The position numbers and the translations under genes were made by a program. Positions 3,960 through 59,064 of a DNA stretch of 64,000 nucleotides are shown one piece after another; within the stretch, counting starts at the first letter, position 1, and each line of letters starts with the position of its first letter. Source of the stretch: Octopus vulgaris (Eukaryota); assembly GCA_951406725.2 (NCBI GenBank), contig OX597827.1, forward strand, positions 69,316,001 to 69,380,000, read 5' to 3'. The notes below the pieces were generated by a model. The model was not told the origin of the DNA. It saw only the letters and a program-made list of their open reading frames with translations, and ran no database searches.

Positions 3960-7291
<3,332 letters not shown>

Positions 7292-24030: not shown

Positions 24031-24281
24031 ATATATATGTATATCTATATGTGTGTATATATATGTATATATATATAAATATGTGTGTATATGTATATAT
24101 ATGTCTGTATTTATATGTATTCATGTGTGTATATATATATATATGTACATATGTGTATGTGTGTATATGTATGTGTGTATATATGTATATGTGTGTATAT
24201 GTATATGTGTATATATGTATGTGTGTGTATATATTTACGTATATGTATATATATTTATGTATATGTATGTATATATATTTA

Positions 24282-25967
24282 TGAAATAGATGAAATGAAA
24301 ATAGACTCAGCTATTGGCCCCGATGGATTCCCGGTAATCCTCCTAAAAGTATGTAAGAGAGTCTTAGCAAGACCACTGCAGTTCCTCTTTCAGAGCTTCC
24401 TTGCAGCTGGCAAACTTCCAAGAAAACTGAAGGAAGGTAAAATATGCCCTATTCATAAAGGAGGTAGCAAAGCGGAGGCCAAGAACTACAGACCTATCTC
24501 TCTGACCTCGCACATCAGCAAGGTCATGGAACGAATAGTCAGAAGGAAACTAATCACCTTCCTTGAAGAAAATGACTTGCTGCCTGACACCCAACATGGT
24601 TTCCGACCAGGAAGAAGCTGCTTAACTCAGCTCCTGCAGCACTATGACTGGGTGCTGAAACAACTGCTCAACCACTCAAATGTGGAAGTCATATATCTCG
24701 ACTTCGCAAAGGCCTTCGATAAAGTCGATCATGGAATGATATGTCACAAACTGCGTGATCTTGGCATAGTTGGAAAACTAGGAGAATGGCTTCACGACTT
24801 TCTGAAGAATAGAAGTCAGGTGGTAGTAGCCAATGGGGCCACTTCCATTAGCACGCAAATAGTGAGCGGTGTTCCACAGGGCACTGTTTTGGGACCACTA
24901 CTGTTCATAATGGCCCTCTCAGACATGCCCTCAGCCACGCGGAGAGCCACGATCACAAGTTATGCAGATGATACAAAAGTTTCACAGGCAATACAGAACC
25001 CTGAAGACACTAGGCACCTGCAATATGAGCTGGACGAAATATACAAGTGGGCTGAAAAGAATAGCATGCAGTTCAATGCTGAAAAGTTTCAAGCTTTATA
25101 CTATCAGCATGCAAAACTGAATGCAATACCCAAGGAATACACTGGACCCGGAGGGATTGCAATCCCAGAGGCACAATCAGTGCGTGACCTGGGTATTCAC
25201 ATGAGTGATGACGCGACCTTTCATGTACATGTTGCTAAACTGACAATGAAATGCAGACGGCTGGCTGGATGGATTCTTAGAACCTTTAGAACAAGAGAAC
25301 AAGAAACCATGATGGTCCTCTGGAAGACACTTGTCCTAAGTCACTTTGACTATTGCTCTCAGCTATGGTCACCATCCAGTGTCAAGTTGATCACAGAACT
25401 TGAGGCGATCCAACGAAGCTACATGAAGAAGATAGCCTCTATGCAGAATGTAAGCTACTGGGAAAGACTCAAGAGATTAAAATTATATTCCCTGGAGCGT
25501 AGGCGGGAAAGATATGCCATAATATACATCTGGAAGATCCTGGAGGGAAGTGTCCTGAACTTTGGCATCGAGAGTTACGCAAATGCCAGAACTGGGTGCC
25601 ACTGCGTGGTGCCTAGGACTCCAAACTTGCCATCAAGATGTAGGACAAGATTCTGTGATAGCCTGGGCTTCCGAGGCCCACAGCTCTTCAATATCCTCCC
25701 GATGAACCTGAGAGACCTGCATGGGGTGGATACAGATGTCTTTAAAATGGAGCTGGATCTCTTCCTGTCAGGTGTCCCAGATGAACCAACTTCACGGCAG
25801 GAGGGGCAGATGAGGGCAGCTGCATCGAACTCTCTCATGCACCAAATAGCAGTTGCTAGAAAGCCTCCATGAAGTGAAACCAAGTAGCAACACCAAATGG
25901 CGGTGCCCCAGCATGGCCACAGCTCATAAGCTGAAACTAGAATCAATCAATCAATCAATCAATCAAT
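24282..25967 (+). mobile_element. 5'-truncated CR1/Jockey-group non-LTR retrotransposon with (AATC)n tail
   Basis: RT ORF, short 3'UTR and (aatc)n tail; microsatellite on both sides. Confidence 0.95.
24283..25872 (+). CDS. LINE ORF2 fragment: reverse transcriptase plus C-terminal region; frame open, endonuclease missing
   Basis: [72 protein letters not shown]. The ORF-track N-terminus 24085-24282 is microsatellite. Confidence 0.9.
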
Positions 25968-26303: not shown

Positions 26304-27448
26304 ATGGCCGCTTCCATTAACACGCAAATAGTGAGCGGTGTTCCACCAGGCACTGTTTTGGGACCACTACTGTTCATAATGTCCCTCCCATACAAGCCCT
26401 CAGCCACGCAGAGTGCCACGATCACAAGTTATGCATATGACACAAAAGTTTCACAGGCAATACAGAACCCTGAGGACACTAAACACCTGTAATATGAGCT
26501 GGACAAAATAAAAAAGTGGGCTGAAAAGAATAGCATGCAGTTCAATGCTGAAAAGTTTCAAGCTTTATGCTATCAGCATGCAAAACTAAATGCAATACCC
26601 AATGAATACACTGGACCCGGAGGGATTGCAAACCCAGAGGCACAGTCAGTGCGAGACCTGGGTTTTTACATGAGTATTGATGCAACTTTTCATGTGCATG
26701 TTGCTAAATTGGCAATGAAATGCAGGCAGCTGACCGGATGGATTCTTAGAGCTTTGAGAACAGGAGACCAGGAAACCATGATGGTCCTCTGGAGGACACT
26801 TGTCCTAAGCCACTTTGACTATTGCTCCCAGCTATGGTCACCAATTAGTGTCAAATTAGTCTCAGAACTTGAGGCAATCCAACGAAGCTACACGAAGAAG
26901 ATATCCTCTATGCAGCATATAAGCTACTGGGAAAGACTCAAGAGATTAAGATTCTATTCCTTAGAACGTAGGCAAGAAAGATATGCCATAATATACATCT
27001 GAAAGATCCTGGAAGGACTTGTCCCAAACTTTGGCATCGAGAGTTACAAAAATAATAGAACTGGGTGCCACTGCATAGTGCCAAGGACTCCAAATTTGCC
27101 ATCAAGATGTAGGATAAGAACTGCGATAGCCTGGGCTTCAGTGGTACACAGCTCTTCAATATCCTCCAGAAGGACCTGAGAGACCTGCATGGGGTGGATG
27201 CAGGTGTCTTCAAAATAGAGCTGGACCTCTTCCTGTCAGGTGTCCCAGATGAACCAACTTCACGGCAGGAAGGTGCAGATAAGGGCAGATGCATCAAACT
27301 CTCTCATGCACCAAATATCAATTGCTAAAAAGCATTCATGAAGTAAAATCATGTAGAAACATCGAATGGCGGTGCCCCAGCATGGCCACAGCTCATAAGC
27401 TGAAACTAGATAAAATAAAATAAAATTAAAAAAATAAAATTAAAATAA
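26304..27448 (+). mobile_element. Second 5'-truncated copy of the same LINE (defective) with (TAAAA)n tail
   Basis: Homologous from [11 protein letters not shown] onward; YADD changed to YAYD; stops at ~26490 and ~27000. Confidence 0.93.
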
Positions 27449-30176: not shown

Positions 30177-30446
30177 TTTGTATATATGTTTCTAGATATG
30201 TATGCGTATATGTGTGTGTGTGTGTGTGTGTGTGTATGTATATATATATATATGGGATATGTGTTTGTTTTTATGCATAAACATGTGATACATGTATGTA
30301 TATTCTTGTCATCGTCATTTTAGTAAATAAATAAATAACTTGACATATAATGTCTAAAAGTTGATGAAACACCTATTGATCCCCTCCATTTTCTTATTGC
30401 ACTATACATTATATATATATATATATATATAGGTGTATATATGAAT

Positions 30447-31075
30447 AGGACACTTATCCTAAGCCACTTTGACTATTGCTCTCAGCTATGGTCACAATCC
30501 AGTGTCAAGTTAATCACAGAACTTGAGGCGATCCAACGAAGCTACATGAAGAAGATAGCCTCTGTGCAGCATATAAGCTATTGGGAAAGACTCAAGAGAT
30601 TAAGTCTCTATTCCTTAGAGCGTAGGCGAGAAAGATATGCCATAATATACATCTGGAAGATCCTGGAAGGACTTGTCCCAAAGTTTGGCATCGAGAGTTA
30701 CGCAAATGCTAGAACTGGGCGCCACTGCATAGTGCCAAGGACTCCAAATTTGCCATCAAGATGTAGGACAAGATACTGTGATAGCCTGGGCTTCAGAGGC
30801 CCACAGCTCTTCAATATCCTCCTGAAGAACCTGAGAGACCTGCATGGGGTGGATGCAGATGTCTTTAAAATAAAACTGGATCTCTTCCTGTCAGGTGTCC
30901 CAGATGAACCAACTTCACGGCAGGAGGTGCATATGAGGGCAGCGGCATCGAACTTTCTCATGCACCAAATGGCAATTGCTAAAAAGCATTCGTGACGTAA
31001 AATCATGTAGCAACACCAAATGGTGGTACCCGATCATGGCCACAGCTCGTGAGCTGAAAGTAGATAAAAAAAAAA
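30447..31075 (+). mobile_element. Third 5'-truncated copy of the CR1-like LINE with poly-A tail
   Basis: [24 protein letters not shown], conserved 3'UTR. Confidence 0.93.
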
Positions 31076-31514: not shown

Positions 31515-32310
31515 TCCTCCCACCCTAACACCTCTTTATTCCAAATTCCTCCATCTGCGCAAGCTCTGCCATGACAACCATGACTTTGAAACTTAGTCTG
31601 AACTTGTGGCTCGACACTTCATCCTACATGGATATCCCCTAACTACTATCCACACATCCCTTGCCAGGGCACATTCTGTGCACCGTACTTCTGGTTTCTC
31701 CCCTGCACCCTCCTTGTCGTCACCCGTCTCTCGTTCCACCCCTCCATTCTACTTCTCCAACACACCATTATTCAAGCCTTCTGGCGACTCCGGTCCAACC
31801 CCTCCACTTCACACGTCTTCCCTAACCAACTCCCTCCCCTCCTTCAAACAACCTATGTGACCTCCTGGTCCACAGTTTCTTCTCTAACCTAACTCCCCAC
31901 CTCGGCATGTTCCCCTGCTGCCCGCCCATGCTGTCACACTTGCCCTTGCCCGTCCAACACCACCATCCCTACAGGCACCCATCATCGACCCTATCATATC
32001 ACTGACTCCTTCACCTGCACTTCTAGCAATTGCATCTCATGCTCTCTCTGTCCTCTGTACATTGGTCAAACGAGACGCTGTTTGGCTGACTGGTTCGGGG
32101 AACATCTCCAATACACCGGACTTGGCAACGACACTCTGGTCTCACACTATTTTCACTCTACCAGTCATTCTTTACAACAGCTATTTGTGTTCGTATTGTC
32201 CTTGCTCGGGGGCCATCAAACTCCCGTCTTTGCCATGAACAGGAATTAATCTTCTCTCTTTGCTCCTTTGCGCCACATGGGCTCAACTCTCCTATCCTCT
32301 TCATCTAACC
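31515..32310 (+). mobile_element. Decayed Penelope-like element (linker plus GIY-YIG endonuclease)
   Basis: SKFLHLRKLCHDNHDF, ARHFILHGYP, CCHTCP, DSFTCTSSNCISCSLCPLYIGQTRRCLADWFGEH, VSHYFHSTSH. Confidence 0.85.
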
Positions 32311-32531
32311 CCCGACCTCTCTCCTCTCTTCCTTTCACACCTACTTCCTCCCTTCACTCCCACCCACCTCTTCTCGTCTCTTGCTCTGACACCTTCCTCT
32401 CTTCACTCCTACCCACCTTCCCCCTTCCACCTTCTCCATTGTTACCCCATCCCTATACATCCCATGCCACACATTCATCTGCCACATACTTCACCCCCAC
32501 CCTCACCACTGACCATTTTCCCACTGGGCAA

Positions 32532-32842
32532 TTCCCAGATTGGGCATTGTGAGTGTTTATTGCGCAAAAACACTTAAAGGGTCCACGAAGCCCCGGTGGC
32601 AAAAGCTGCTGTACTCTTTCACCACAAATTTCTCTCCTTCTTTATTCCTATTTCTGTCCTATCTGTATTTCAAAGGGCCAGCCTTGTCAGCATGTGTGTC
32701 ATGGTAAATCTCCCTGGGAATTACATTAAGGGTACACTTGTGTGTGGGAATGGTCAGTCACTGGCACGTTAATTTCATGAGCAGGCTGTGCCGTTGATTG
32801 GATAACCTGGAACCCTCATAATTGTTACCGGCTGTATGCCAT
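32532..32842 (+). mobile_element. 5'-truncated, diverged copy of the SINE at 35028
   Basis: ttgtgagtgtttattg..gtatttcaaagggcc..cacgttaatttca..gcaggctg. Confidence 0.8.
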
Positions 32843-33054: not shown

Positions 33055-33226
33055 ATAGATTGCTAGCTACACATTCTTCATTTTCTCTCCTTGTTTCTTT
33101 TTGTGGAAGAGCGTAGCCTCGAAATGTTAAAGACTTTTTCACTTCCTGAGCATTATACTTATACATCTGTTTGTTGTCTACACCACCTGTCTTCGTCTTT
33201 TGTTTTTTTTTTGTGAATTCTTCCCA
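33055..33226 (+). mobile_element. Family A short repeat with degenerate hammerhead-like motif
   Basis: tcttt-TTGTGGA-AGAGC-gtag-CCTC-GAAAT-GTT-aaaga (33096-33133). Confidence 0.7.
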
Positions 33227-33321: not shown

Positions 33322-33508
33322 GTATACATATATATACGTATACTGATTATAGCAGTGACTCCTTCTAAGAATATCTGAAGAAGGAATTTTATACCGAAAT
33401 ATCATCTAACTATGGATGACTAAATTACAACAGGTATAGAACTCATTGTTTGTATTATAGTGCATTGTTGTACCATTCCTAACTTTTTATTCTATGCATA
33501 TATATATA

Positions 33509-33961
33509 TGTGTCTATGGCCAGCTGAAGGAGTGTGTCCTCCTGGGGCTAAAAACTACAGTAGCATCCACCCTTAGGGGTAGCCATATTGAAATGGCAAA
33601 TATACGTCACGATGTGTTACCGCTACTGTATATAACTCACTTTGATATTTATCATTGTTTGATTTCACTTTTTCAATATCAGCGACAGTGGACTCTGGAA
33701 AAAGTATAAGTATTTGTGAAGGAAATCTAATTCTCGCCGACAACTATGATTGTCACACACTGACGAGAGGTCAATACCTCGAAACTCGAGTCCGTGTGTA
33801 TCATAAGTTGAAGACGGGAAGGATGACTTCCCTTTGCAAATACTGACAGGGCACAGAAAGTGTGTCTATAGCCAGCTGGAGGAGTGTGTCCTCCTGGGGC
33901 TAAAAACTACAGTAGCATCCACCCTTAGGGGTAGCCATATTGAAATGGCAAATATATGTCA

Positions 33962-33965
<4 letters not shown>
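33509..33965 (+). mobile_element. Putative non-LTR retrozyme (352-bp unit, ~1.3 copies)
   Basis: 105-bp direct repeat at 33509-33613 and 33861-33965 enclosing a hammerhead; (TA)n on both sides. Confidence 0.7.
33741..33810 (+). ncRNA. Type I hammerhead ribozyme
   Basis: CTGACGA(33760-66), GAGG-tcaata-CCTC, GAAAC-tcga-GTC(33790-92). Stem I cacac/gtgtg, extended by caactatgat/atcataagttg. Confidence 0.88.
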
Positions 33966-34007
<42 letters not shown>

Positions 34008-35027: not shown

Positions 35028-35408
35028 GGAGGCGCAATGGCCCAGTGGTTAGGGCAGCGGACTCGTGATTGTAGGATCGCGGTTTCGATTCCCAGACCGG
35101 GCGTTGTGAGTGTTTATTGAGCGAAAACACCTAAAGCTCAATGAGACTCCGGCAGGGATGGTGATGATCCCTGCTGTAGTCTTTCACCACAACTTTCTCT
35201 CACTCTTACTTCCTGTTTCTGTTGTACCTGTATTTCAAAGGGCCGGCCTTGTCACTCTCTGTGTCATGCTGAATATCCCCGAGAACTACGTTAAGGGTAC
35301 ACGTGTCTGTGGAGTGCTCAGCCACTTACACGTTAATTTCACGAGCAGGCTGTTCCGTTGATCGGATCAACCGGAACCCTCGTCGTCGTAACCGACGGAG
35401 TGCTTCCA
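35028..35408 (+). mobile_element. Full-length tRNA-derived SINE (resembles octopus OR-type)
   Basis: ggaggcgcaatggcccagtggttaggg (A box)..ggtttcgattccc (B box) plus ~300-bp body. Confidence 0.88.
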
Positions 35409-36226: not shown

Positions 36227-36261
36227 TATACGTATATATGCTTGCATGTATATGCATATAT

Positions 36262-36309
<48 letters not shown>

Positions 36310-36401
36310 TCATTCATATAGATGTCTGTGTGTATATGTATATATATGTATACATATATATATACATATTCATATACATGTCTGTGTGTATGTGTAAATA
36401 T

Positions 36402-36475
<74 letters not shown>

Positions 36476-36940
36476 GTAACAAATTGGGATCACGTGGATG
36501 AGAAAGGTCCGATTCCTGAGAGGAATGGACAGCATGCTATGACCAGCGGTGTCAAATGGATGCCCGATGGACTGGTCAGTCAAGGTGATATAACAAATGA
36601 AAAAATGGGAATTTGTGAGATTGTGTATCAATCAGAATGATCATTACAACCCATCTTGCGCCTGTCTCTTGCAAGAGAGATAATGTGCAACTGATTGTGA
36701 TGCATCCTGTGGTGCAGATGTTTCTTGCCAGATGACTTCACAAAAGGTTTCTTGATCAATAATGTGGGTTTCACTTGGTTCGGTTATGTAATGCATGTCC
36801 TTATATTATCTGCTTGTGTGCTCGCAGGTACAGGCAACTAACAACATGCATTATAATACAACCAAGTGCAATTGAGTTTATTGAGGCCACTTTTGAAAAG
36901 TCACCCAACAAGAGACATCTGCAGCAAAATTTGTCCAACC

Positions 36941-36985
<45 letters not shown>

Positions 36986-37135
36986 GTGTGTGTATATATA
37001 TATTATATGTATATATATATGTGTATATATGTGTGTGTGTGTATATATATATATATCTGTATATGTATATATATATATATATATATATCTTAGTATATAT
37101 ATATTGTATACATGTGTGTGTGTGTGTATATATAT

Positions 37136-37392
37136 ATTATTATTATTATGGCTGCCTCCTCATTATCGAGTATGGCCATTGCACAAGCTTAACTGGTGCT
37201 GTGATCGAATGTGACTTTTTAGCCCAGCTAAAGATCTACAATGTCTTGTACAAAATTGGCAACTAATACCTTTACCGGAAATAGCCGGCTGTAGTTGTAA
37301 CTGGGCTTCATGTACCTTTCCATGTTGTTTAAGTCCTCCGGCCGAATTACACTCTCTTCCACATGCCCGACAGATATGATTAGTATGGTGTG
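37136..37392 (-). mobile_element. LINE (probably RTE-type) 3' end with two C2H2 fingers and (TAA)n tail (duplicate at ~40056-40318)
   Basis: [43 protein letters not shown], then a short UTR and (taa)n. Confidence 0.7.
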
Positions 37393-37497
37393 TTATATAT
37401 ATATATATGTATATACACACACACATATAACGACTATGATGATGATGACATATATAAGACAGGCTTCCTTCAGTTTCCACCCACCAAATCCACTGAA

Positions 37498-37790
37498 ACC
37501 TATCAACAGAGCTACATCCTTCTTAACAAGGCACTAGCAAGGAGTCGCTTTGCCAATAAATTAGCATCTGTGGAGACACTTCCACTCCTGAACCCAAAGT
37601 GACTGAGAAAGAGAAAAATAGTCTGGTTCAATCCTCCATACAACCTAAATGTTTCCACTCATATAGCTAGGTGTTACCTGATGCTTAGTAAAATATTTTC
37701 TTCCTAGGATCTATGGATATTATCAGTTTCTCAATCCCCATAATGTCAAGGTGAGCTACTCCTGTTTAGACAACATTGCTCAAAACATAT
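37498..37790 (+). mobile_element. Penelope-like remnant (duplicate at ~40422-40715)
   Basis: RKRKIVWFNPPYNLNVSTHIAR and VKVSYSCLDNI motifs typical of the PLE RT-EN linker. Confidence 0.75.
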
Positions 37791-39208
37791 GCCACAGTGT
37801 GCACAAATACACAACTACACAGCCTCCAACTCACACCCCAATCTGTAGCTGATGAAATCCTGCCAACAACACACTATACTGATCCTACCTCACACTATCC
37901 AATAGCATCACAAATTATTACTTCAGGGATATGACTAAGAGAAATATACTTGCTGTGCTCCAAAAGACCCATCTGTCACAGTGAAAGTGCAGTCCTAATA
38001 GCATTATTATGTCTATACTACAGTCACTGGGCCCTGCACTCAATCTGTCCCTGTCAAACCTTTTCCATCTCTCATCCTCCTAACACCCATCCTACCATCA
38101 CTTTCCTAACTATGGCACTATTCAGCTGCTGTAATCATATAAGAACAAAAGCTGCACATACTCCATCCCCCACCCCACCCTTTGTACTACCAGTTACCTG
38201 CCCACTCTCACTGGAACCACTTCTTTTTCAAATTTGTCCCTATTTCTTAATATCATTCCTCTCCACTTTATTTTCCATTGATCACAAATTTCTATACCTC
38301 ACTTCCTCTCACCCTCTCCTCTGAGCTACATCCTAGGNNNNNNNNNNNNNNNNNNNNNNNNNNNNNNNNNNNNNNNNNNNNNNNNNNNNNNNNNNNNNNN
38401 NNNNNNNNNNNNNNNNNNNNNNNNNNNNNNNNNNNNNTGTGTTTATAATGTGAATGTGTGTGTATATAATGTTTTGGTGCGTGGTTGGTCTCCTTTTTCC
38501 GTAGGTTTGGTGAAGAAGCATGTTGGACAGATCTGGCATCTCTTGTGCCTTGTACTGTGTTGTTGGTTCATCTGAGATTTCCAACAGAAGTACATTCAGG
38601 TGCATCTTGTATATGTAGTTATACCAACATCACCATTTAATGTCCGCCTCCCATGCTGGCATGGGTCGGATGGGACATAGATGCATATTAATGTATGTGT
38701 ATATATATCATGTCACGTAACCGACCTGACCATCAGATGTTGCTACACATCGCTGGTCACAATGCGTTCGCACTGTTTTAGCCTTCGAATGATGCCACCC
38801 CACTGGCTAAGCGAGCAGGCCAACAAAAGAGTGATGAAAGAGTACAGCAGGGATCACCACCCCCTGGCGGAGCCTTGTGGAGCTTTTAGGTGTTTTTGCT
38901 CAATAAACACTCACAATGCCCGGTCTGGGAATCGAAACCGCGATCCTCCGACCACAAGTCCGCTGCCCTAACCACTGGGCCATTGCGCCTCCACATGTGT
39001 GTATATATATACATTTATATAGTCGATTCAAAGAACAACCAATTACAACCAAGAAAAAGACGAATATGAACTTGCACAAGAAGTGTATTAATTTGACGTT
39101 TCAAGCATAGCTCTTTATCAGAAAGTCGAAAGAGGAAGAAGGAAAAATGGCCAACAAACCATATGCAGTTGCCTATACGTATATATGCTTGCATGTATAT
39201 GCATATAT

Positions 39209-39241
<33 letters not shown>

Positions 39242-39346
39242 CATATATATTCATTCATTCATATAGATGTCTGTGTATATGTGTATATATATGTATACAT
39301 ATATATATACATATTCATATACATGTCTGTGTGTATGTGTAAATAT

Positions 39347-39420
<74 letters not shown>

Positions 39421-39887
39421 GTAACAAATTGGGATCACGTGGATGAGAAAGGTCCGATCCTGAGAGGAATGGACAGCATGCTGTGACCAGCGGTGTCAAA
39501 TGGATGCCCGATGGACTGGTCAGTCAAGGTGATATAACAAATGAAAAAATGGAATTTATGAGATTGTGTATCAATCAGAATGATCATTACAACCCATCTT
39601 GCGCCTGTCTCTTGCAAGAGAGATAATGTGCAACTGATTGTGATGCATCCTGTGGTGCAGATGTTTCTTGCCAGATGACTTCACAAAAGGTTTCTTGATC
39701 AATAATGTGGGTTTCACTTGGTTCGGTTATGTAATGCATGTCCTTATATTATCTGCTTGTGTGCTCGCAGGTACAGGCAACTAACAACATGCATTATGAT
39801 ATAACCAAGTGCAATTGAGTTTATTGAGTGGGGCCACTTTTGAAAAGTCACCCAACAAGAGACATCTGCAGCAAAATTTGTCCAACC

Positions 39888-39940
<53 letters not shown>

Positions 39941-41781
39941 ATATATATATATGTGTGTGTGTGTGTATATATATATATATCTGTGTGTGTATATATATAT
40001 ATATATATCTTAGTATATATATATTGTATACATGTGTGTGTGTGTGTATATATATATTATTATTATTATTATGGCTGCCTCCTCATTATCGAGTATGGCC
40101 ATTGCACGAAGCTTAACTGGTGCTGTGATCGAATGTGACTTTTTAGCCCAGCTAAAGATCTACAATGTCTTGTACAAAATTGGCAACTAATACCTTTACC
40201 GGAAATAGCCGGCTGTAGTTGTAACTGGGCTTCATGTACCTTTCCATGTTGTTTAAGTCCTCCGGCCGAATTACACTCTCTTCCACATGCCCGACAGATA
40301 TGATTAGTATGGTGTGTTATATATATATATATGTATATACACACACACATATAACGACTATGATGATGATGACATATATAAGACAGGCTTCCTTCAGTTT
40401 CCACCCAACAAATCCACTGAAACCTATCAACAGAGCTACATCCTTTATAACAAGGCACTAGCAAGGAGTGGCTTTACCAATAAATTAGTATCTATGGAGA
40501 AACTTCTACTCATGAACCCAAAGTGACTCAGAAAGAGAAAAATAGTCTGGTTCAATCCTCCATACAACCTAAATGTTTCCACTCATATAGCTAGGTGTTA
40601 CCTGATGCTTAGTAAAATATTTTCTTCCTAGGATCTATGGATATTATCAGTTTCTCAATCCCCATAATGTCAAGGTGAGCTACTCCTGTTTAGACAACAT
40701 TGCTCAAAACATATGCCACAGTGTGCACAAATACACAACTACACAGCCTCCAACTCACACCCCAATCTGTAGCTGATGAAATCCTGCCAACAACACACTA
40801 TACTGATCCTACCTCACACTATCCAATAGCATCACAAATTATTACTTCAGGGATATGACTAAGAGAAATATACTTGCTGTGCTCCAAAAGACCCATCTGT
40901 CACAGTGAAAGTGCAGTCCTAATAGCATTATTATGTCTATACTACAGTCACTGGGCCCTGCACTCAATCTGTCCCTGTCAAACCTTTTCCATCTCTCATC
41001 CTCCTAACACCCATCCTACCATCACTTTCCTAACTATGGCACTATTCAGCTGCTGTAATCATATAAGAGCAAAAGCTGCACATACTCCATCCCCCACCCC
41101 ACACCTTTGTACTACCAGTTACCTGCCCACTCTCACTGGAACCACTTCTTTTTCAAATTTGTCCCTATTTCTTAATATCATTCCTCTCCACTTTATTTTC
41201 CATTGATCACAAATTTCTATACCTCACTTCCTCTCACCCTCTCCTCTGAGCTACATCCTAGGACAACCATACCTCATCTTATTAACACCCTCTCAGATAG
41301 CCATCAGTCCGCCCCCCCCCCTGTCTTTGTTCCTCACTCAGTCTTGCCATCCCTGCAAACCCCTGACACCCATCAATGTTGCTATCCATTTCTTTCTCCC
41401 CCTCTCTCTCTCCCCCCTTCACTCTTCCCACTCCCACATATCTCCCTATTTTCTGATCTCCATTGGTTTATCAAACTGCTGCTCTCTACCCTTCCTGTAC
41501 TACATCTTATCACTTCCTCCTCTTTCCTCAAGCACTCCTATCCCTTTTACTCCCCCCATTCTCCACCTAACAGATAATAGCCATTGACCATGCCTCCACC
41601 CTTGTCCATCATTCACTACTTCTCACCTCTACTCTCATCTCTAACCATCTAATGGTGAACTTATCCAACCACCATTCCAAACCTGTTTTCTCTCTTATAA
41701 CTCACATTCTTGTATTTTGAGAGTTTGCCCTGACATCTTGTTCCTACCGCTTTGTCCTTTTTCCAATTACTCTCACCTATA

Positions 41782-54768: not shown

Positions 54769-54943
54769 CGTTGGCGATTTTTTTTCCTCTGTCTTCCCTT
54801 CTCTGGATCTTTCCTTCTCCTATATTTCCGATGAAGAGCTCCGCTCGAAACGTTAAACCCTCCTTCTTTCCTGAGCGTCCAATAATACTATATTTGTTCC
54901 ACATCCTCGCGTTGTTGTGTTTTTTGTGCTTTCTTGTTTGGAT

Positions 54944-54950
<7 letters not shown>
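54769..54950 (+). mobile_element. Short repeat, family B, with minimal hammerhead-like motif
   Basis: ttt-CCGATGA-AGAGC-tcc-GCTC-GAAAC-GTT-aaa (54825-54857); second copy at 62736-62924. Confidence 0.7.
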
Positions 54951-54974
<24 letters not shown>

Positions 54975-55019
54975 TCATTCATTCATTCATTCAACATGTG
55001 AAATCATTAATCCAGACAT

Positions 55020-55528
55020 GCTTTTTGTCTCTCTCTGTTTTTATTTTTTTCTTCATTCATTTCTGTAGAAGAGCGTAGACTCAAAATGTCAAAGACTACT
55101 ATTTTTCCTCGTTCTTAAGACTAATACCCCTTGTTCCTTGCCACCTGTCTCTGTCTTCTCGTTTTTGTAAAAGTTTATATCATATATATATATATGTATA
55201 ATTCCTTTCTGTAGAAAGTGTAAGCTTGAAACATCAATGGCTCTTCCATTTTTCTTGGGTGTCAAACTAATACACCATGTTTCATGTCACTTGTCTTGAC
55301 TCTGTCTTCTGTTTTTTCTTGTAAAATTTTGAGCCATGATAGATTGTTAGCTACTACACACATTTTTTTTCTCTCCTTGTTTCTCTCCTTGTTTTTCTTG
55401 TGTATATTTCTGTAGAAGAGCGTAGGCTCGAAACGTAAAAGACTTTTTCTATGAGCGCTATACTAATACATCTGTTTGGTTGTACACCACCTGCCTTCAT
55501 CTTTTGTTTGTATTTGTAAACTTTCCCT
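55020..55528 (+). mobile_element. Three head-to-tail family A repeats
   Basis: CTGTAGA cores at 55063, 55209 and 55410; the last is ttt-CTGTAGA-AGAGC-gtag-GCTC-GAAAC-GTA-aaa. Confidence 0.7.
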
Positions 55529-58844: not shown

Positions 58845-58884
<40 letters not shown>

Positions 58885-58887
<3 letters not shown>

Positions 58888-59064
58888 AGAATTCACGAAA
58901 AAAACAAAAGACGAAGACTGGTGTTGTAGAAAACAAACAGATGTATTAGTATACCGCTCGGGAATTGAAAAAGTCTTTAATGTTTCGAGCCTACGCTCTT
59001 CTACAGAAAGGAACAGATAAAGAAACAAGGAGAGAAAAAAATGTGTGTAGTGGCTACTGATCTA
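58885..59064 (-). mobile_element. Family A short repeat with hammerhead-like motif
   Basis: Reverse complement cttt-CTGTAGA-AGAGC-gtag-GCTC-GAAAC-ATT-aaag (58975-59010). Confidence 0.7.

Follow-up and report, generated by a model that had tools for sequence, protein, structure and literature searches.

Non-LTR retrozymes of animals are described in the main text of Cervera and de la Peña (2020, PMC7229834) as 350–390-bp repeats in mussels and as Rtz331 and Rtz353 in the axolotl, and their mobilization by Penelope-like elements (PLEs) was proposed there. The main text of a recent preprint (Li, Clavereau and Pollet 2026, 10.64898/2026.07.22.740005) presents retrozymes as PLE derivatives, supported by co-occurrence and by pLTR homology in Xenopus; it covers 35 genomes and no mollusc, favors local amplification, leaves the mechanism open and reports that eight of nine Xenopus dimers failed to cut. 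EN+ PLEs leave their own marks, namely 5′-truncated copies, a bias toward microsatellites and an optional 30–40-bp tail carried by one of the two arms of an inverted pair (Craig et al. 2021, PMC8557442; Arkhipova et al. 2013, PMC3846280), together with duplications of 8–13 bp (PMC8557442, PMC3846280, PMC11167929). According to the main text of Frangieh et al. (2024, PMC11167929), the PLE tail is the stretch between two internal reverse transcription (RT) start sites, and both DNA strands are cut and then extended by a predicted dimer.

The window analyzed here is a 64,000-nt stretch of the Octopus vulgaris genome (contig OX597827.1, positions 69,316,001–69,380,000), and near its middle lies a short non-coding insertion of this kind (Table 1). 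Self-BLAST recovered the 105-bp direct repeat from which the original prediction had started (33509–33613 versus 33861–33965; period 352, three substitutions, E 2.5e-46), and the TA runs noted on both sides are indeed present. The paired differences (33518 G/33870 A, 33527 A/33879 G and 33605 C/33957 T) are all rare departures from the family majority; two are private to the window copy, and the third, at a CpG, is present in three loci. The unit is 352/353 bp long with a GC content of 0.42, and folding it as a circle, which had been suggested as a check, gave a predicted −105.7 kcal/mol (z −4.6 relative to 60 dinucleotide-shuffled sequences). The absence of a meaningful reading frame also held: the mechanical ORF list gives at most 76 aa for frames mainly within the element, and roughly half of the young insertions are fixed for a 1-nt indel near unit position 71, so coding is unlikely.

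Table 1. Coordinates of the retrozyme insertion and its parts in the window, and of PLE loci with an upstream ORF (locus coordinates)
Feature	Position	Strand	Remark
Whole insertion	33509..33965	+	1.3 retrozyme units, 457 bp, single arm, 5′-truncated, short fixed 3′ end
One full 352-nt period	33509..33860	+	unit positions 1–352
Second copy of unit 1–105	33861..33965	+	closes with the short 3′ end (predicted RT start site S, unit 102/105)
Optional tail (43–46 nt), internal copy	33614..33659	+	unit 106–148/151
Hairpin arm containing site S	33557..33632	+	7-bp basal helix
Type I hammerhead	33746..33804	+	core, helices, covariation
Hammerhead helix I	33746–50/33800–04 and 33754–59/33793–98	+	
Hammerhead core CUGACGA	33760–66	+	
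Hammerhead helix II	33767–80	+	
Hammerhead GAAA	33781–84	+	
Palindromic helix III	33784–91	+	predicted cut after C33792 (unit 284)
Left target remnant (AT)6	33498..33509	.	sequence
Right target run (AT)n, ~(AT)19	33964..34003	.	AT common to run and element end
Upstream ORF, PLE families A/B	L236 5432–6793	−	
Upstream ORF, PLE families A/B	L064 1268–2704	+	
Upstream ORF, PLE families A/B	L237		

The far end of the internal tail copy is the long 3′ end used in other copies, corresponding to the predicted RT start site L. The 7-bp basal helix of the site-S hairpin does not vary in any of the 31 copies compared, which represent four age classes, and thus shows no covariation; since only 2 of the 14 consensus pairs change on both sides in the covariation test, the hairpin is conserved but not proven. 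A target-site duplication is unreadable at this copy because the insertion sits inside TA. Elsewhere in the window, LINE-type RT fragments stand at 24079–25869 (RVT_1, E 9e-32), 26493–26999 and 30351–30992 (plus strand), each downstream of long TA-rich runs. A ~300-bp repeat flanks the retrozyme (32531–32839 and 35088–35403; 78–88% identity, 2.56 kb apart), and paired tandem-repeat rows and paired open frames mark an apparent duplication of ~36227–38320 and 39174–41200 at a distance of ~2.9 kb.

The element in the window contains one complete type I hammerhead core, at 33760–33792, and the predicted 3′ product begins at 33793, where it had been placed originally. An Rfam scan of the window returned nothing at gathering score, so core nucleotides, helices and covariation are the basis of the hammerhead call. 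Of 146 young units, 140 have an intact core, and helix cells are paired in 90.5% of cases across 31 distinct sequences compared with 16–52% in slid controls, a count whose shuffle control takes no account of relatedness among the sequences. Helix III is an 8-nt palindrome; in 11 sequences of the oldest class a two-sided change, probably one event, preserves the palindrome. The predicted best fold of the monomer differs from the active hammerhead fold, and co-folding of two copies predicts the double hammerhead as the minimum-energy structure (−44.5 versus −19.9 each). Metazoan type I hammerheads are known for such pairing, and a helix III of this type requires a partner ribozyme and is associated with slow cleavage (main text of PMC4209133). 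On this model, monomer release could occur only from loci with two hammerheads. In the window copy, a G>A change at 33759, where G stands in 144 of the 146 young units whose core is complete, turns the closing pair of helix I into A·C. With a single hammerhead and this broken closing pair, the copy is likely unable to release a monomer; it is an ordinary family member and likely a dead end. A variant core, CCGAUGA, occurs in some retrozyme copies of the 90% class (L213, L221, L234).

The retrozyme interpretation gained support from the genome, where the unit is far from single-copy. The exact 26-mer just 3′ of the cut site has 916 genome matches and its reversed control none. A pattern designed for one sub-haplotype matched twice and was set aside. 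A search of the 2.8-Gb genome with the unit returned at least 2633 candidates, and the 40 that were scored are mostly 97–99% identical. Four age classes were distinguished, young copies and older ones of ~90%, ~80% and ~70% identity, the older classes with ~3000 candidates per search. We mapped 116 insertions: 56 position-ordered on two contigs (sample U), which were conditioned solely on the presence of the 26-mer, 40 best matches, and 20 mostly long arrays. Overlapping loci of one insertion, arms below 80% identity and L183, a duplicate of the L178 insertion, were removed before counting, and variant tables were restricted to arms of at least 94–95% identity. Arrays consist of head-to-tail units, up to about nine, with no ORF between them. 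L178 and L183 (~21.14 and 22.18 Mb on one contig) share an identical insertion structure in opposite orientation at a distance of ~1 Mb, which probably reflects a segmental duplication. L076 429–852 (profile E 9e-15) is a distant relative with two inverted arms and its own hammerhead, and probably represents another retrozyme family.

The octopus element has every sequence-level feature of the animal non-LTR retrozymes portrayed in the main text of PMC7229834: a short (150–450 bp) non-coding tandem unit with one type I hammerhead and a short palindromic helix III, a GC content of 42% (below 50%), a monomer predicted to be highly self-paired, dispersal in hundreds to thousands of copies, co-existing PLEs, and duplications of more than 4 bp where readable. 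We therefore regard it as very probably one of the non-coding, hammerhead-bearing non-LTR retrozymes. Fixed internal 3′ ends, a tail, (TA)n targeting and inversions pairing a short with a long end, in contrast, are not known to us from that paper. No cephalopod retrozyme, and no such footprint in any retrozyme, was found in the literature searched; the main text of the octopus repeat-annotation paper PMC13282606 contains neither "ribozyme" nor "retrozyme".

The insertion footprint was quantified in sample U. Permuted copies with variable breakpoints had been expected, and this proved half right: 5′ ends are scattered and arm lengths run continuously from 32 nt up, but 3′ ends are fixed at two sites. 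Of the 89 arms, 82 end at S or L, 44 of them at unit 96–105 (site S, modes 102 and 105) and 38 at unit 144–154 (site L, modes 148 and 151), and both ends recur in subfamilies of 70–80% identity. A TA run follows 68 of the 82 S/L ends, compared with 175 of 2850 random flank positions (6%), and 5 of the 37 insertions without TA on both sides show duplications of 11–15 bp. Inverted two-arm structures make up 30 of the 56 insertions. Across all sets, 49 of 57 inversions combine S with L, none combines S with S or L with L, and eight have one end elsewhere; the short-plus-long rule thus holds in 49 of 49 intact inversions, with odds near 2e-15 under independent choice. Many inversion junctions show a 1–4-base overlap. 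An identical junction (5′ ends 138 and 48) was observed in L015 and L247, which carry different haplotypes, and suggests sequence-guided joining of two cDNAs.

An inverted arm could also arise if the first cDNA folded back and primed itself, or from an antisense template, with no second priming on RNA, as suggested for rotifer PLEs in the main text of PMC3846280; a few near-symmetric or hairpin junctions (L209, 74/74; L253, 158/190) have the expected look. A fold-back copy must, however, be contained in the first arm, and the S arm is the longer one in 27 of 45 two-arm insertions; the lengths of the two arms show no correlation (rho −0.04), and the tail cannot come from an S arm. Fold-back consequently does not explain the second arm and was rejected on these lengths, and we hold this whole class of origins to be highly improbable.

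The fixed ends also bear on the template. A linear monomer with run-off at the ribozyme cut permits at most 173 or 216 nt of cDNA, a limit exceeded by 63 of the 89 arms of sample U, and none of the 89 stops at unit 283–287 in 91 passes of the cut site (about one stop expected by random drop-off). Such a template was ruled out by these counts; in the long-array set, one arm of L242 does start at 283. Since the fixed ends do not lie at the ribozyme cut, arms are long and stops are missing, the template must have been continuous, either a circle or an uncleaved multimer.

Haplotypes at eight sites are discordant in 30 of 933 comparisons within arms (3.2%), 41 of 669 between the arms of one insertion (6.1%) and 41077 of 112845 between insertions (36.4%). 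For 29 rare variants, every unit of the insertion concerned carries the variant, up to 8 of 8 and often across both arms. Two of these were searched genome-wide, and all matches (7/7 and 6/6) fell within one insertion each; with each variant confined to a single locus, the assembly shows no donor array, although a single haploid assembly may lack one. The variant data favor, as the simplest reading, one monomer read repeatedly from both DNA ends, and a circle appears likely to be the usual template. Among template-borne variants, A>G accounts for 8 of 39 compared with 11 of 159 single-unit changes (Fisher p 0.016, one of 12 classes), and the A>G:T>C ratio is 8:3 (p 0.11); this hints weakly at RNA edits made permanent by reverse transcription, but significance is lost on correction.

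The same element and PLE enzyme could instead have used a linear multimer, transcribed from donor units in tandem and left uncleaved, with any circles as a by-product. Read-through of the cut site fits this model equally, the helix III design depends on a partner and motifs of this type cut slowly (PMC4209133, main text), and an anole PLE used mainly uncleaved RNA in vitro (PMC11167929, main text). A mixed linear multimer would give unit-specific variants in register in both arms, as found in L155 and L156, whereas those in L151, L188 and L247 are out of register or discordant, so that the in-register test stands at two for and three against. With 29 rare variants fixed over entire insertions and no donor locus in the assembly for either searched variant, we regard the multimer as rather unlikely.

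Arrays would say nothing about the RNA template if monomer-length insertions had later been expanded in DNA by unequal crossing-over or slippage, a model proposed in the main text of 10.64898/2026.07.22.740005. Neighboring units do share variants in several arrays (L242, L245, L246, L247, L251), as expected from local duplication or conversion, or from assembly polishing, which can mix or level tandem units, and an inversion junction is duplicated in L155. Private variants are nonetheless common to opposite arms (L018, L156, L242, L249, L253, L256, L259), and units diverge about as much within arms (198/18250) as between them (335/23921). Given also the continuous arm lengths, expansion in DNA can be a secondary process only, and as the general explanation it is very improbable.

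The original prediction had guessed at a borrowed, possibly Penelope, RT, and the tail and inversion footprint strengthens that guess. In two PLE families of the genome, A (781-aa frame) and B (775-aa frame), copies terminate in (TA)n, the tail is optional, and inverted copies pair a tail with a no-tail end; family C also terminates in (TA)n. All three carry the CX4CxxC linker, a mark of Neptune/Nematis-type elements (PMC8557442, main text). Families A and B look active, and B currently so, with 76 of 76 scored copies 100% identical over a 574-aa query. Family B forms 4270-bp perfect tandems. In families A and B, an upstream ORF of 450–480 aa overlaps the start of the RT-EN frame by ~80–90 nt and matches no Pfam family above cut-off. 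Variant hammerhead cores were observed in family B (CCGAAGA, L240 ~6540–6590) and in family C (UUGAAGA, L291, just downstream of the ORF). In the window, family C is represented by a decayed RT-EN C-terminal fragment (31537–32381, plus strand, 75% to L291), by a 3′ terminal piece with a degenerate hammerhead whose TA-run end lies ~280 bp before the retrozyme (33081–33209, plus strand), and by further 3′ pieces at 2513–2790, 54777–55521 and 58845–59048.

The footprint of the retrozyme, with its optional 3′ tail, 5′ truncation and inverted arm tailed on one side only, appears to be the Penelope tail footprint common to families A and B, and EN+ PLEs with the same target preference (A, B, C) reside in the genome; mobilization by a PLE enzyme is very probable on these grounds. 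The one-armed optional tail, 5′ truncation and AT-rich targets are those of the EN+ PLEs in PMC8557442 and PMC3846280, and two internal RT start sites downstream of a hammerhead recall the PLE of PMC11167929, as described in the respective main texts. The retrozyme differs from these elements in lacking an ORF, in a tail of 43–46 rather than 30–40 nt, and in arms built of many units head to tail. MRC1 and similar Chlamys elements (PMC8557442, main text) are likewise non-autonomous, multicopy head-to-tail, PLE-mobilized and targeted to microsatellites, but they share 3′-terminal similarity with their autonomous partners, and hammerheads are missing from most Chlamys. Class and proposed mobilizer are the same as in the preprint of Li and colleagues; there, according to its main text, the link to PLEs comes from co-occurrence and from pLTR homology, the latter not found in our sampled PLE loci, whereas in the octopus it comes from the insertion footprint.

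Families A and B differ from the retrozyme in tail length (~38 nt in A, 32 nt in B) and in end microhomology with TA (6 nt in A and B versus 1–2 nt in the retrozyme), so that neither is put forward as its partner. A profile of the four age classes revealed no sense-oriented terminal homology to the unit in families A, B, C or other sampled lineages, the search covering 75 PLE loci and 41 family C loci, a small part of the 6136 GIY-YIG candidates, of which 150 were scored. Profile matches in L096, L049, L076 and L299 are in opposite orientation or far upstream, as judged by position only. An 82%-identical match in L070 was rejected as a PLE terminal repeat, being a separate TA-flanked insertion ~600 bp past the PLE's own end.

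These searches also bear on the idea that the unit is the pseudo-LTR of an unsampled autonomous PLE and its copies the 5′-truncated stumps, for which the PLE-like footprint and the scored fraction of the GIY-YIG candidates leave some room. The original prediction had itself considered fixed ends attached to a Penelope ORF, but in the loci examined the unit is nowhere attached downstream of an RT-EN ORF, and inspection of the flanks of all 116 insertions found no arm entering PLE coding sequence at its 5′ end. With head-to-tail arrays free of intervening ORFs and the L070 match accounted for, we consider this origin barely credible.

We hypothesize that the family is copied by a PLE RT-endonuclease reading round a predicted 352-nt RNA circle, an explanation that as a whole we find fairly likely. 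Donor loci with two or more hammerheads would be transcribed, and adjacent ribozymes, paired by way of the palindromic helix III, would cleave and free a monomer to be ligated into a circle. As the footprint and the main text of PMC11167929 suggest, RNA-bound PLE protein would then cut (TA)n or AT-rich DNA with a stagger of ~10 bp, and reverse transcription would begin inside the RNA at site S (102/105) or L (148/151). Synthesis would cross the ribozyme site and fall off at random, giving the observed range of 0.1 to 9 units. Roughly half of the insertions would stem from priming by both ends of the cut DNA, one at S and the other at L of a single RNA, after which short microhomology would join the resulting cDNAs back to back. 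The window copy would be a single S-primed arm of 457 nt. Tentatively, and with somewhat more doubt than belief, each inverted insertion may further be read as the work of one PLE dimer, its S and L subunits priming both cut ends of the TA repeat and rolling round one RNA circle.

Re-insertion of retrozymes by PLE enzymes from circular templates has been proposed but not demonstrated in the literature examined. The octopus family offers a countable footprint for it, with two fixed start sites, the short-plus-long rule, read-through of the ribozyme site and single-template haplotypes, and near-identical intact PLE ORFs together with a published in vitro PLE assay make the route directly testable with 352-nt RNA. 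If the dimer reading on one circle is true, the long-puzzling tail-plus-inversion layout of Penelope would be obligate twin priming, and the genome would archive the sequences of single circles, including RNA-level variants that have no DNA donor.
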